Shown: positions 2,755 through 25,190 of the stretch, in pieces
Layout: every line of letters begins with the position of its first letter
How positions within the stretch are numbered: position 1 is the stretch's first letter
Origin: Candidatus Thorarchaeota archaeon
Lineage (GTDB): Archaea > Asgardarchaeota > Thorarchaeia > Thorarchaeales > Thorarchaeaceae
NCBI GenBank assembly: GCA_004524445.1
Contig: SDNP01000032.1
Span: 1-32,849 of the forward strand
Direction: 5' to 3'
DNA: 32,849 nt
Made by a program: the position numbers and the translations under genes
The notes under the pieces: model-generated
What the model was told of the DNA's origin: nothing
The model's database searches: none
Seen by the model: only the letters and a program-made list of their open reading frames with translations

Positions 2755-2839
2755 TCTAATCAGCTTTAATAGATGCCTATGGTTTCCCTTAAATCCTTCT
2801 CACAACTGATACTGGAGAAGAAATAGTGAAAGGAGATAT

Positions 2840-2906
2840 CCAGCGCCCCGGGCAGGGGTGTCCAACTCGGCTCACAACTTTACGCCGAGTCTTCATCCGC
2901 CGCTGG
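2840..2906 (-). promoter_or_regulatory. Eukaryote-type SECIS element at the 3' end of vhuU
   Basis: Minus strand reads CCAGCGGCGG-AUGAA-GACUCGGC-GUAAAGUUGUGA-GCCGAGUU-GGAC-ACCC-CUGCC-CGGGG-CGCUGG. This gives an AUGA...GA kink-turn core, an 8-bp upper helix, an apical AAA, and lower helices GGCGG/CUGCC and CCAGCG/CGCUGG. It lies about 82 nt downstream of an in-frame UGA. Confidence 0.82.
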
Positions 2907-3045
2907 TCACAATCTCCTTCCTGGCTATCTCGCGACCCTCATCATCCACGATGGTTAGATGAGCGCCGCAGGATAGTCAGCAGTCGTAGCAGCGAACCAC
3001 CATTTCCAGGAGGTTCAGCAGTCCTTCGGGTATGTCGTCTGTCAT
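2893..3045 (-). CDS. vhuU: Selenocysteine-containing [NiFeSe]-hydrogenase small peptide subunit VhuU (50 aa, Sec at codon 23, TGA at 2977-2979); absent from ORF track
   Basis: Manual translation: MTDDIPEGLLNLLEMVVRCYDC-U-LSCGAH-LTIVDDEGREIARKEIVTSGG*. It supplies the C-terminal Ni-binding motif (RxYDPCxxCxxH) that vhuA lacks, and the TGA falls exactly on the Cys/Sec ligand position. Confidence 0.92.
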
Positions 3046-3060
3046 TTTTTTGTTCACTTC

Positions 3061-4374
3061 TCATATCATGGGGTCCGGTAAGTCCAGACTCTCGTGTTCC
3101 TTATTTTCGAAAACTTGCTTGGCTGTCTTTAGGAGGCTTTTCTCAAGCCCCGCGATGTTATTGTTTGTGGCAACTACCATATTCACCTTTGTGATAATGC
3201 CATTGTCATCAGTCCAATAGTGGTGGATGAGTGTTCCTCTCGGTGCCTCCACACAACCGACACCATTGCCTTTTCTGGGTTCTACATCCGTCAGCTTGAC
3301 ATCTGTACTAACGATATCAGGGTCATTAAGGAGACCTTCCATCTCTTCTACAGCTTGAACCATCTCAATGACTCGTGCCCAATGGTACGCAAAGGTCGCG
3401 TGTATCGGGCGTCCTAAGGCGTCACGCATCTCTTCAAGGGCTTCTTGTGCAATGGGTGTAGCCATTTTATCCGCCACATTGATTCTTGCTAAGCTGTTTG
3501 CTCTCCAAACGCCCTCTGGATATCCCTTCTGCTTATAGTACACATGAGTTGCATAGGAATGGTCAGAAACGTATTCTCCGTAGTATTTTCGGTAATGCTT
3601 TGGATTGAAGTCCTCTACTATCTTCCCATCGGGGTCCATCACTCTTAGTTTGCCATCATAAATTTCCAAGTTGCCTTTGTCATGCAGTCCAAGGTAATAT
3701 GTAGGAACCACTGCGAGTTTGGTTATGGGGTCCCAGTAATCCTTCACGACTTTCTTGGCTAAATCAACAGTATCAAGGGTCTGTTGTTTCGTCTTCTCAA
3801 TCCGTTTCAGGAATTCATCTCGCTTTTCCTCTGAAAATGGATTCAGCATTCCTCCTGGTGTTGCAGTCACGGGATGGATTGCTTTCCCGCCAACAGCGGC
3901 ACACAGTTCCTGTCCGAACTTCATTACTTCAAGTGCCATCTTGCCTACATCTGGAAGGCTCTTGATTATATGGACAACATTTCGCTTTTCAGGCTCAGCA
4001 AACGGTCCCGCGAGAAAATCAGGTGCAGCAAGCGCAAAGAAATGCAAGGCATGACTACTGAATTGTTTTGCATTTATGAGTAGTCTTCGCAGTTTGATTG
4101 CAGCTGGTGGGGGCGTTACTTTCCATGCCGCCTCAACAGCCTTCACTGCTGCGAGGTGATGGGGTTCGGGACATATCCCGCAGATTCTTGGTGCTATACG
4201 TGGAGCCTCCTCAGCAAACCGGCCCTCTAAGAACTTCTCAAAGAAACGAGTACTGCTCACATTGAATTGAGCATCCTTGACTTTCCCATCCTTCCCCAAA
4301 ACAACAGTAATTTCACCATGTCCTTCCAAGCGAGTCACTGGTTCAATTCTGATTGTCTTTTCGTCTTTCGTCAT
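3061..4374 (-). CDS. vhuA: F420-non-reducing (group 3c) hydrogenase large subunit, lacking the C-terminal CxxC motif (split type)
   Basis: EPVTRLEGHG, RFFEKFLEGR, PRICGICPEPH (L1 motif), SHALHFFALAAPD and VEAPRGTLIHHY are all present. It ends ...LPDPMI-TGA with no DPCxxC motif. Confidence 0.93.
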   Translation of the reverse strand: MTKDEKTIRIEPVTRLEGHGEITVVLGKDGKVKDAQFNVSSTRFFEKFLEGRFAEEAPRIAPRICGICPEPHHLAAVKAVEAAWKVTPPPAAIKLRRLLINAKQFSSHALHFFALAAPDFLAGPFAEPEKRNVVHIIKSLPDVGKMALEVMKFGQELCAAVGGKAIHPVTATPGGMLNPFSEEKRDEFLKRIEKTKQQTLDTVDLAKKVVKDYWDPITKLAVVPTYYLGLHDKGNLEIYDGKLRVMDPDGKIVEDFNPKHYRKYYGEYVSDHSYATHVYYKQKGYPEGVWRANSLARINVADKMATPIAQEALEEMRDALGRPIHATFAYHWARVIEMVQAVEEMEGLLNDPDIVSTDVKLTDVEPRKGNGVGCVEAPRGTLIHHYWTDDNGIITKVNMVVATNNNIAGLEKSLLKTAKQVFENKEHESLDLPDPMI

Positions 4375-5291
4375 TTCTCTTCCTCTCTTTCTTTTCCCTT
4401 AATCTTCGAAAGGTACGAATCTGCATAATCTGTGAAATAGAATGAACCGATGGGATCTGGGAAGGCTGCCTTCAGCTCCTCCGGCTCCATCTCTGCAATG
4501 GCTCCCAACGCCGAGATTATTTTTGCACCGTGGTCCTTCACAGATGGAGGTGGACCGAAGCATCCTTTGCATGGTGTATTGACCGTTGGACACTGTGCTC
4601 CACACATTCCAATGGTTGCAAATCCTAGACAGAGATATCCTTGGTCCAGTAAACATTTGTCTGGGTCGATGTGACCCTCATGTGCACGATGAAACTTGGT
4701 GATGTGTTTGTCCTTCTTTTCCTTTGGACATTCATCACATACTGTCTTGGTGGGCAGCTCAAATGGTTGCCCCTTGATGAGAGCTGTTAATGCCTCAGCG
4801 GTGTTGTCACTCGTTGGAGGACAGCCGGGAAGCCGTACTTCAAAGGAAACGATGGATGGATTTGGTACAATGTGCTCAACAAATCCGGGCATGTTCTCGG
4901 TAGGAATTCTACCATCCTCGACGGTGTCTGCCTCGAGGAATTTTCGTCTTAGAAGCTCATCTAACGCCCATTGATTCCCAAGACCCTGTACTCCGCCGTA
5001 GACTGAGCAGGAGCCCCATGCTACCAAGACCTTGCTCTTTTTCCGCATGATCTTTAGTAGATGCTCGTCTTCCTTGGTTCTGCAGCTTCCTTCTACCATA
5101 CCAATGTGAATGGAACCATCCGGCATGTCTTCAAGGTCTTTCAACTTGAAGTCCACCACTGCTGGCCAATACACAATCTCTAGTTCAGGTAAGACGTCCA
5201 ATAAGCGAAGATGCAGGTCTACTAGTGCCTGGTCGCATCCCCAGCATGAAGTCAGTTGTGCAAGTGCTATTCTCTTGGTCATTTTAGTCAT
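4371..5291 (-). CDS. vhuG: F420-non-reducing hydrogenase small (FeS) subunit; start at 5291 or 5282
   Basis: SCWGC, VEGS, AWGSCSVYGG, LPGCPP, VCDECP, CLLDQGYLCLG...CGAQCP...PCKGCFGP. Its stop overlaps the vhuA start (ATGA). Confidence 0.92.
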   Translation of the reverse strand: MTKMTKRIALAQLTSCWGCDQALVDLHLRLLDVLPELEIVYWPAVVDFKLKDLEDMPDGSIHIGMVEGSCRTKEDEHLLKIMRKKSKVLVAWGSCSVYGGVQGLGNQWALDELLRRKFLEADTVEDGRIPTENMPGFVEHIVPNPSIVSFEVRLPGCPPTSDNTAEALTALIKGQPFELPTKTVCDECPKEKKDKHITKFHRAHEGHIDPDKCLLDQGYLCLGFATIGMCGAQCPTVNTPCKGCFGPPPSVKDHGAKIISALGAIAEMEPEELKAAFPDPIGSFYFTDYADSYLSKIKGKEREEEK

Positions 5292-5748
5292 CCTTCATTG
5301 CTGGATTGGGTCCTAGCTTTTTGATTCTCTCTACCATTGCCGTCACGCCTTGGGTAAATACATCGCCTTCAGCCGCACTTGCCCACTGTAGATGGACACG
5401 TCTTGGGTCTATACCAGCTTCCTTCAGCATGCTCTGGAGTAAAACGAATCTCCCTCTCATCTTCAGGTTGCCGCTTGTATAGTGACAGTCGCCAGGATGA
5501 CATCCACTGATGAGCACACCGTCTGCCCCCTGATTCAGCGCATCAAGAATGAAAACAGGGTCGATTCGCCCAGTACAATTGATTCTAATAATCCGTGCAT
5601 TTGGGGGCATTTGCATCCGGCTCGTTCCAGCAAGATCTGCTCCCGCATAGCTGCACCAATTACAGCAAAACGCCAAGATTCGGGGCTCAAAGCCTGCTTG
5701 CCGCTCCTTTTCCTTTTTTGTGGCTGTCTTCTGACTCGCTGATGTCAC
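5284..5748 (-). CDS. mvhD: MvhD/VhuD/FlpD-family [2Fe-2S] hydrogenase subunit (all-Cys form); probable GTG start at 5748
   Basis: FCCNWCSYAGADLAG, CTGRIDP, GADGVLISGCHPGDCHY and WASAAEG. A GGAGGT SD-like sequence lies about 10 nt upstream of the GTG at 5748. Confidence 0.93.
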   Translation of the reverse strand: MTSASQKTATKKEKERQAGFEPRILAFCCNWCSYAGADLAGTSRMQMPPNARIIRINCTGRIDPVFILDALNQGADGVLISGCHPGDCHYTSGNLKMRGRFVLLQSMLKEAGIDPRRVHLQWASAAEGDVFTQGVTAMVERIKKLGPNPAMKDD

Positions 5749-6010
5749 GCTGGAAATGACCTCCTGCGGCCTCAACTGCTCGGAATGATTATTGATTATT
5801 AAGATTCTGTTTAGTCGCACTTTTCTTTGGGCAGAAGCAATCAAAATTTTCTATAGAACTATGGTTTTCAAACACATTAAGATATGAGCTCTCGCGATGA
5901 ATTCTATCCGTCTGTACTAATATTTCATTCCTTGAATTTAGTAACAGTTTTTATGTCCCACTCCATCATCTATATGAGTTGTTGAGTCACAGTTGAAATG
6001 GTGATATGAT

Positions 6011-22983: not shown

Positions 22984-24333
22984 TCAGGACAGATGCGGGA
23001 GAATTTTGTCAGTGACCTTCTCGAATACGTGCGCCAAGCTATTCCCCAATATGCCGTACTTGCGTAGATAATGTTGGATGGTGCCCTTGTTTTTGGCAAA
23101 TCGCAGCTTCTCCTCTGAGAAATCGCCCTTGAAAAGCAGCTGATGGCGGTTTGCCTTTCCTCTCTGTTTCTTCCATTCTGAATCCGTTATTTTTGCTCTA
23201 ACCTTCGTGTAAAGTCCAGTGCCCACAATTGGGTAGGGAAAAGAGTATGAGAGATAATCAAGAGGTAGCTTGGATGAGAATCTTAATGTTTCGAGCAGAG
23301 AGTTGTCTGTTTCTCCTGGATATCCGAGAATGAAGAAGCCTCCCGTTTCAATACCTGCTTGCTTCGCGGAGTGAATTGCACTGGTTACGCTATCGAGGTT
23401 GATTTGTTTGTTCATGACTTCCAGCATTCTCTCATTTCCAGACTCGATTCCAAAGAATACCCGGACACATCCTGCTCTCGCCATCCTCTCTGCCATTTTT
23501 GGTGTCAAGGTATCTGCCCGGCTCAGGCACATCCAATCAAGGTTCAATTCAGATGAGACCAGTGTGTCGCATATTTTTTCAACTCGGTCCGGATTAAGTG
23601 TGAAACAATCGTCTTGGAAAAAGACCCTGTCATATCCGAGTTCCTCTATCTGTTTCATCTCTTCGACCACAGATTGAGCAGAGTACTCACGATAGCTTCT
23701 TCCATACACTGGATTGCTACAGAAATCACAGGCATATGGGCATCCACGAGTTGACATCATGCTTGTCGCCGTGTATTCATGATATCTATTCCAGTACTCT
23801 TTGTACTTCTCATTAGGAAACAGGTCCCTTGCAGGATGCGGTATCGTATCAAGTTCTGCAATATATGGGCGTGAGTCGTTGACGATAATGTTGCCGCTTT
23901 TATCTCTGTATGCAATACCCTTGATGTTATACCAATCTTTGTTCCCTTGTATCCTCTCTACCAGTTCAAGGAATGTTTCCTCCCCCTCATGCCGAACCAC
24001 TATATCGAAGATGTCAAGGAAACTCTCCGGTGTTATTGAAGGAAGCGGCCCTCCTGCAACAATCAATGGAACTTCGTTTCTTATGCTTCGAGCAATCCGT
24101 ATTGCATGATGGTTCATGGTGACCATCGAGTAGATTCCAACGACGTCAGGTTTGGCTCTTTTAATGACTTCTACGGCATCCCCGGGTTGGGAAAATGTAC
24201 AGTCAAGAAGCTGTGGCTCTATGCCAATTCCCCTCAGAACTGAGGCCAAGTATCCGAGACCCAAGGGGGGATAGCGGAAAATCGATCTATCTAACTCCTC
24301 GTTGAAATAGGGATAAACAAGCACCACTCTCAT
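22984..24333 (-). CDS. Cobalamin-binding radical SAM protein (class B methyltransferase-like)
   Basis: YPPLGLGYLAS, VAGGP, EGEETF, TRGCPYACDFC, FQDDCF and FGIESG. Confidence 0.9.
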   Translation of the reverse strand: MRVVLVYPYFNEELDRSIFRYPPLGLGYLASVLRGIGIEPQLLDCTFSQPGDAVEVIKRAKPDVVGIYSMVTMNHHAIRIARSIRNEVPLIVAGGPLPSITPESFLDIFDIVVRHEGEETFLELVERIQGNKDWYNIKGIAYRDKSGNIIVNDSRPYIAELDTIPHPARDLFPNEKYKEYWNRYHEYTATSMMSTRGCPYACDFCSNPVYGRSYREYSAQSVVEEMKQIEELGYDRVFFQDDCFTLNPDRVEKICDTLVSSELNLDWMCLSRADTLTPKMAERMARAGCVRVFFGIESGNERMLEVMNKQINLDSVTSAIHSAKQAGIETGGFFILGYPGETDNSLLETLRFSSKLPLDYLSYSFPYPIVGTGLYTKVRAKITDSEWKKQRGKANRHQLLFKGDFSEEKLRFAKNKGTIQHYLRKYGILGNSLAHVFEKVTDKILPHLS

Positions 24334-25190
24334 TTCTCTGCACCATTCATCTCGGATACCGGACCGATTTTCACCAGATACTTTATGCTCTTGGTGCTGG
24401 GTGGAAGCGAGAGAATAACTCCGCTCCAGCTTATGATGTCATCAATTATCTCTCTGCCTCTGAATGCACGCACTCCGTCTGGTATACTCACTTTAAAAAA
24501 CAGATTCGCTGCTGGGGAATAGAATGTTGCCTCTCTTCCTTCTATTTTGTCCCAGCCGGATATCTCATCCCGCCTCAGGCGAACCCCTGTATCATCTCGA
24601 TATGCATCAAATAGAATTCCTCCCATCTCATTGGAGAGAAAAATCTCTTGTAATCCCTCTCTATCAATTCCCTCTAAATTCATGGAGACTAAAATATCCT
24701 GTTTCTCATTCTCGAATTCATAGTCAACGGTTATGGTTCCTTTAGACTTGACCCTATAGAATGCCGGGGGACGACCCTCAACATTCACCCCTGTACTTCC
24801 TGCTATCCTACCGCTCAGCTCTATGAGCCGTCTACCCAAAGCTGTTTTGTAAGTACGATTGTACAGCCTCTGGTAGACCCAAGAGAAGGTCTCTGGTCTA
24901 GATGAAGCCTTCTTTTGATGCCTATCAATGAGATTCAAGTCGAATTTTTTCCATGCCCTCTGCGAGGTGATTTTGCCCTCTTCAGAGGTTGTTGCTGTTC
25001 CCGGAAAATAGAAATCTCGACGATATTTCAGTAGAGGGACACCTATACCAATTCCCTCTTCACACAGATCAGCACTGCCTTGTTTTCTGCTTGGAACTAC
25101 TCCCTTTTGAATTGGTGCGGCCTTCCCACATTGAGGTTTGGGGTCCTTACTTAGATATAGTCCTAAACGGTTATCCCCTGAAGAATTCAT
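24330..25190 (-). CDS. Hypothetical protein translationally coupled to the radical SAM gene
   Basis: 286-aa ORF whose stop overlaps the radical SAM start (ATGA). Contains EEGIGIGVP, NEMGG and GRE...SWSG motifs. No function recognised. Confidence 0.7.
   Translation of the reverse strand: MNSSGDNRLGLYLSKDPKPQCGKAAPIQKGVVPSRKQGSADLCEEGIGIGVPLLKYRRDFYFPGTATTSEEGKITSQRAWKKFDLNLIDRHQKKASSRPETFSWVYQRLYNRTYKTALGRRLIELSGRIAGSTGVNVEGRPPAFYRVKSKGTITVDYEFENEKQDILVSMNLEGIDREGLQEIFLSNEMGGILFDAYRDDTGVRLRRDEISGWDKIEGREATFYSPAANLFFKVSIPDGVRAFRGREIIDDIISWSGVILSLPPSTKSIKYLVKIGPVSEMNGAEK

Follow-up and report, generated by a model that had tools for sequence, protein, structure and literature searches.

A split [NiFeSe] hydrogenase with a predicted UGA-encoded selenocysteine in a Thorarchaeota-like Asgard archaeon

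We analysed a 32,849-nucleotide stretch of DNA (the window) from a Candidatus Thorarchaeota metagenome-assembled genome (MAG), following up an original prediction that a hidden selenoprotein gene completes a hydrogenase at this locus. Features of the locus are collected in Table 1. Four genes in the order vhuD-vhuG-vhuA-vhuU form an operon on the minus strand; the true start of vhuD probably lies inside its open reading frame. VhuD/MvhD and the small and large subunits are encoded together, the arrangement that marks a hydrogenase as Mvh/Vhu-type (group 3c), and no hdr genes were found within the window. The closest named relatives of VhuA come from Candidatus Thorarchaeota MAGs at 83-84% identity, and one archaeal MAG has a relative at 97%. 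The source genome comprises 64 contigs and is 90% complete with 5.4% contamination. As it is a MAG, the selenocysteine (Sec) machinery and the window lie on separate contigs.

Table 1. Positions of the operon genes and of the recoding features in the window
Feature	Position	Strand	Evidence or remark
vhuD/mvhD (iron-sulfur delta subunit, Cys-type)	5284..5844	-	Pfam FlpD E 4.7e-53; NCBIfam VhuD E 1.2e-42
vhuG, hydrogenase small subunit	4371..5291	-	NCBIfam VhuG E 2.4e-82; Pfam Oxidored_q6
vhuA, large subunit, 437 aa	3061..4374	-	NCBIfam VhuA E 1.5e-146, model positions 4-417 of 418
vhuU, putative selenoprotein C-terminal piece of large subunit, 50 codons + stop	2893..3045	-	
UGA predicted to be read as selenocysteine, codon 23	2977..2979	-	TGA invariant in 26/26 equal-length relatives
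Predicted C-terminal extension, codons 30-50	2896..2958	-	inferred from [NiFe] maturation
Lower helix 5' strand, inside vhuU coding sequence	2901..2921	-	GGAAGGAGAU 2921..2912, bulge, CCAGCG 2906..2901
SECIS core and upper hairpin	2860..2896	-	covarying stem; covariance model R1 47.8 bits
Mini hairpin CCCC-UGCCC-GGGG	2846..2858	-	97.5% paired; loop CGCAA in most relatives
Lower helix 3' strand, 3' UTR	2828..2845	-	CGCUGG 2845..2840, AU, AUCUCCUUUC 2837..2828

The remainder of the window carries genes of other kinds. Tandem paralogous MscS-type channel genes occupy 350-1246 and 1362-2267 on the minus strand (Pfam MS_channel_2nd, E ~1e-17 each), with a gene for a small DUF420-like membrane protein (2323-2754) upstream of both. 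Between 6283 and 19666 lie two genes for aldehyde:ferredoxin oxidoreductases, each paired with a poly-ferredoxin, among amidohydrolases, a DHODH-like flavoprotein, a ThiS-like protein and a PAS histidine kinase. The same genome also contains a second vhuG-vhuA-vhuU operon (G000:C16:72600-75100, minus strand), whose VhuG, VhuA and VhuU are 50%, 67% and 96% identical to the window proteins. At the nucleotide level the second vhuU is nearly identical to that of the window through the SECIS, the exceptions being two stem pairs with compensatory changes; this near-identity points to either gene conversion or a very strong constraint. It has ATA where the window has ATG, and may start at a TTG three codons upstream.

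The two genes at the end of the operon tile a single large subunit. VhuA has the N-terminal ligands Cys65 and Cys68, in RICGICPEPHH, and it does end without the C-terminal Ni-binding DPCxxCxxH, as had been predicted, closing with ...LDLPDPMI-TGA. Its residues 1-420 align with 1-421 of a fused 477-residue Cys-type homologue from a bacterial MAG, and residues 5-29 of VhuU align to residues 428-452 of the same protein; the two alignments cover the fused protein end to end, so that together the window genes account for one complete subunit. The alignment of VhuU with this homologue places the UGA on the first C-terminal Ni ligand. The UGA thus pairs with Cys in fused homologues, as anticipated for codon 23, and it pairs with X (Sec) in chain M of PDB 9sfi, a 27-residue "F420 non-reducing hydrogenase subunit" that reads ...RAYDPXYSCAAHM.

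Rereading the DNA reproduced every number predicted for vhuU, from its coordinates and the 15-nt gap to codon 23, His29 and the 21-residue tail, with the gene on the minus strand. The ATG (3045..3043) lies exactly 15 nt from the vhuA stop, and the frame reads MTDDIPEGLLNLLEMVVRCYDC-TGA-LSCGAHLTIVDDEGREIARKEIVTSGG-TGA with its stop at 2895..2893. The His is codon 29 (2961..2959) and is followed by 21 residues. The motif had been described less accurately. The UGA does occupy the first Cys of the C-terminal motif, but the wording DPCxxCxxH does not hold, since the residues are D-C-U-L-S-C-G-A-H and a Cys replaces the usual Pro. With C substituted for U, the frame matches the NCBIfam VhuU model NF041786 with an E-value of 2.9e-13; its score of 49.4 bits is below the curated equivalog cut-off of 70 bits, which is tuned to Methanococcales. 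The RCYDCU motif of the window (2959-2994, minus strand) carries two extra Cys relative to the RAYDPU of Methanococcales and to fused DPC forms, and the Cys just before Sec is retained in every Asgard copy examined, including the Cys-type YDCC.

Conservation of the frame extends through the UGA and beyond it. A small open reading frame directly after vhuA on the same strand is also present in 26 relatives, and a six-frame search recovered the vhuU frame in 49 of 61 related genomes. At approximately 47 loci a single TGA interrupts the frame, each time at codon 23, and the alignment spans residues 1-50. Among 26 equal-length copies, variability in codons 24-40, after the TGA, is 0.235 at third positions and 0.068 and 0.023 at first and second positions. 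The pattern before the TGA is alike (0.292, 0.059 and 0.016). Sequence past the TGA is therefore conserved in homologues, as the original prediction required, with protein alignment and codon periodicity both carrying on. Together with the match to the VhuU model, this takes the frame far beyond what chance would give. Cys-type homologues (YDCCLSC) occur in Thorarchaeota and other Asgard MAGs, forming a classic Sec/Cys pair with the UGA-containing copies.

The expectation that gene callers would miss vhuU is borne out by public protein data. Among 5.8 billion protein clusters, every full-length homologue that we found was of the Cys type, and the one other entry was a 32-residue call (P0009), which ends ...RCYDC, exactly at the UGA.

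All components sought for Sec decoding, namely tRNA-Sec, SelD, PSTK, SepSecS and EFSec, are present in the genome. With 54.7 bits the tRNA-Sec exceeds the Rfam cut-off, and ARAGORN calls it as tRNA-SeC with anticodon TCA. It is flanked on contig C49 by genes for SepSecS (E 9.6e-122) and PSTK (E 2.1e-41) and adjoined by an EFSec/SelB-type factor (279 bits), so that EFSec, SepSecS, tRNA-Sec and PSTK fall within 4.3 kb (G000:C49:35951-40184). PSTK reaches 142 bits against a curated cut-off of 290; it is the sole match in the genome and adjoins tRNA-Sec. The selD gene, on contig C19, itself carries an in-frame TGA, which falls in the active-site loop (HGUSCK) of the protein.

A SECIS element lies at the end of vhuU. 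Its AUGA (2896..2893) includes the UGA of the vhuU stop codon and is followed by an unpaired A at 2892. The upper stem pairs 2891..2884 with 2871..2864, giving 8 bp plus one A-G, and is capped by a 12-nt apical loop, GUAAAGUUGUGA (2883..2872), that begins GUAAAG. The 3' GA of the core (2862..2861) is carried by GGAC at 2863..2860. The element has each of the features by which the model of Huang 2024 defines type I of the Asgard eSECIS-like elements: an AUGA core, an upper stem of 7-15 bp, an apical loop of 8-20 nt with leading A's, a 3' GA or AA, and a position at or just past the stop codon. All relatives share ATGA at the stop, an unpaired or non-canonical A, an 8-bp stem, a loop of approximately 12 nt starting G/C-U/G-A-A-A, and then (N)GA-C. 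The euryarchaeal GAA_A internal bulge is absent from the conserved structure of the vhuU SECIS.

Folding statistics and covariation both point to a maintained RNA structure. The window SECIS has a minimum free energy of -43.2 kcal/mol (z -3.35). RNAalifold, run on an unbiased MAFFT alignment, returned three helices with 94.6% of cells paired, compared with 26-49% in control alignments that had been slid. Covariation in the alignment is 0.50 versus 0.30 in shuffles, a value reached by 0 of 500 shuffles, and in all 7 alifold pairs of the upper stem both partners vary. A scan of the entire window at Rfam gathering thresholds gave no match, so Rfam holds no model that catches this SECIS. We searched the genome with our own covariance model, R1, built from 28 vhuU SECIS hairpins, and the two vhuU copies were the sole accepted matches. 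A 20-bit match to R1 on contig C31 was rejected as it lies inside an ordinary coding frame. No SECIS was found at the Cys-type vhuU locus L080.

The SECIS hairpin is part of a larger fold. Nearly all vhuU copies fold singly as a three-way junction (2828-2921 of the window, minus strand) whose arms are a long lower helix, the SECIS hairpin, and a mini hairpin that separates the 3' GA from the lower helix. The 5' strand of this helix extends 25 nt into the vhuU coding sequence. The helix covaries: its duplex energy is -30.05 kcal/mol for cognate strands versus -25.60 kcal/mol for non-cognate strands, and the cognate mean was attained in 0 of 10000 permutations. The same three-way layout recurs in selD of this genome (G000:C19 ~24300-24400, plus strand) and at most selD loci of relatives, with the stop inside [A/G]UGA, an NGC(A/G)A-pentaloop hairpin and a lower helix GAGAC/GUCUC that is partly coding. 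The vhuU genes of further families within the phylum show it as well, and it is missing from the Cys-type vhuU L080. A scan with a loose descriptor of the junction gave 18 matches versus 6 in the reversed control, three of which we judged convincing: the two vhuU copies and selD.

This three-way form is one possibly new detail of the locus. A search of the literature for archaeal SECIS elements with a three-way junction returned nothing relevant, and main-text passages of PMC4989117 and PMC11227280 make no mention of the NGCRA mini hairpin or of the long, partly coding outer helix. Tentatively, in Thorarchaeota and neighbouring families of Asgard archaea the SECIS may be a three-way junction, with the conserved NGC(A/G)A hairpin and the partly coding lower helix common to two unrelated selenoprotein mRNAs, vhuU and selD, unlike the published two-stem drawing. 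Such a junction could conceivably serve as a k-junction-like aid to recognition or folding that replaces the missing SBP2, a protein not known from Asgard archaea (PMC4989117). The form bears on how a eukaryote-like SECIS is recognized without SBP2.

Taken together, these results support vhuU as a real selenocysteine-coding gene, with incorporation of selenium predicted from the sequence. Two other readings of the codon-23 UGA would deny it that status, and we consider both very improbable. One holds that the UGA is a true stop, the downstream frame being an untranslated relic and the hydrogenase decaying or differently ligated. Under translation table 11 the frame does end there, as does the public call P0009. 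A relic of this kind would nevertheless have to be squared with the TGA kept at approximately 47 loci and with the protein conservation and third-position variability of the next 27 codons. It would also leave the essential CxxH ligands beyond the end of the protein, in a genome that has complete Sec machinery and a covarying SECIS. According to the other reading, to which we give just as little credence, UGA is decoded as Cys or Trp through genome-wide or near-cognate reassignment. The Cys-type YDCCLSC homologues, which imply that Cys is functional at this site, would suit such decoding. Yet TGA terminates vhuA, vhuU and selD in this same genome, and in-frame UGAs were found only at known Sec positions (vhuU twice, and selD), each with a SECIS. 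The placement of tRNA-Sec (TCA) beside SepSecS, PSTK and EFSec likewise argues for Sec.

A further alternative concerns the stop of vhuA rather than codon 23. The vhuA stop TGA (3063..3061) shares its frame with vhuU and precedes the SECIS core by 167 nt, and read-through would therefore join the two proteins; if this UGA too were read as Sec in this genome, a fused VhuA-VhuU would arise as a second product beside the split one. The choice of stop codons in relatives can be read in its favour, as vhuA ends in TAG (15) or TAA (9) in 24 of 26, as if UGA were avoided, and in TGA only in this genus (2). Mariotti 2016 made the same argument for hdrA (PMC4989117). The arrangement is not conserved, however. 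The gaps in relatives are spread over all three frames (11, 8 and 7 loci), and a same-genus genome has a 13-nt gap, so that read-through there would give an out-of-frame tail. Because the frame relation varies even within the genus, we rejected a programmed VhuA-VhuU fusion as a conserved feature, and we regard fusion in this genome as unlikely.

Reading the codon-23 UGA as Sec, we conclude that the operon of this Thorarchaeota-like Asgard archaeon very probably encodes a [NiFeSe] hydrogenase of the Mvh/Vhu type with a split large subunit. The analysis shows the anatomy and homology of the genes, the conserved UGA and coding sequence past it, the Sec machinery and the covarying RNA structure; Se incorporation, the cleavage site and the physiological partner are inferred. 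In the mechanism that we propose, Sec23 and Cys26 of VhuU would supply the C-terminal Ni-Fe ligands, and Cys65 and Cys68 of VhuA would supply the others. The SECIS, 83 nt past the Sec codon, would recruit EFSec with Sec-tRNA(Sec), and Sec would be inserted at codon 23. The 5' edge of the lower helix lies 55 nt past the Sec codon, and the element should therefore stay folded while a ribosome pauses there. Translation would then run for 27 more codons, melt the lower helix of the SECIS, and end at the UGA in the AUGA core. This stop UGA may escape recoding by being too near the element, or by being reached when the element is already unfolded (after Mariotti 2016).

Maturation would complete the subunit. 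Following metal insertion, a HycI-family endopeptidase is predicted to cleave VhuU behind His29, so that residues 30-50 are removed and the mature peptide has ~29 residues. Such a cut is consistent with the single gene for a HycI-family hydrogenase endopeptidase in the genome and with the end of the solved VhuU chain 9sfi_M, which stops one residue past the His. The vhuU of one relative (G044, locus L076, G044:C49:18700-19100) has a premature TAA eight codons past the His, with the downstream sequence and the SECIS retained at the usual distance. This TAA is consistent with a tail whose protein sequence can be lost and whose RNA is still needed.

The vhuA of this MAG is neither truncated nor broken, and a 50-codon selenoprotein gene completes the enzyme. 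Since ordinary gene callers cut vhuU at the UGA, an intact [NiFeSe] hydrogenase of the Mvh/Vhu type should be included in metabolic reconstructions; this genome has two such operons. The gene and its recoding signal have already been published for Asgard archaea, in 2016 and 2024, and what we report is a gain in annotation and no discovery.

Fused Cys-type Mvh-like subunits (Anaerolineae and other bacterial MAGs, L053-L066; MvhA of PDB 5odc_F and 9sw2_F) share 41-44% identity with VhuA 1-420, and their C-terminal ...EGMLN.. stretch and tail align with VhuU; they differ in being single polypeptides with Cys for Sec and no SECIS. The VhuU of Methanococcales (NF041786, 9sfi_M) is alike in its split large subunit, its short peptide and its Sec as the first residue of UxxCxxH. 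It has RAYDPU, whereas the window and all examined Asgard copies have R-C/A-Y/F-D-C-U. The methanogen SECIS is of the GAA_A bulge type, according to the Asgard SECIS papers, and that of the window is of the AUGA_GA type. The window element resembles the eukaryotic type I SECIS in its position in the 3' UTR, its AUGA_GA kink-turn-like core, its unpaired apical A's and its lower helix. It differs in its shorter upper stem, the stop codon within the core, the partly coding lower helix, and the extra hairpin that makes it a three-way junction.

The closest counterparts are those of other Asgard archaea. Mariotti 2016 described a Lokiarchaeota VhuU selenoprotein with a "lokiSECIS", in which the AUGA of VhuU.1 is the stop codon (PMC4989117). 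The Asgard survey of Huang 2024, which includes Thorarchaeia, reported FrhA, MvhA and VhuU selenoproteins; Sec is used by 77% of Thorarchaeia, and 68% of the Sec users have FrhA/VhuU selenoproteins (PMC11227280). Like Lokiarchaeota VhuU.1 and Asgard VhuU, the window gene encodes a peptide of ~50 residues with a single predicted Sec downstream of vhuA. Its SECIS shares with lokiSECIS the AUGA that doubles as stop, a stem of 8-9 bp, an A-rich apical loop and the 3' GA, and it matches the Thorarchaeia variant of Huang 2024, with apical G[U/G]AAA and lower stem [U/C]GG_C[C/U][A/G]. We see no essential difference from the systems of these two papers, whose main texts give an internal loop and a lower stem. 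For the field, the locus is a further instance of the published Asgard Sec system.
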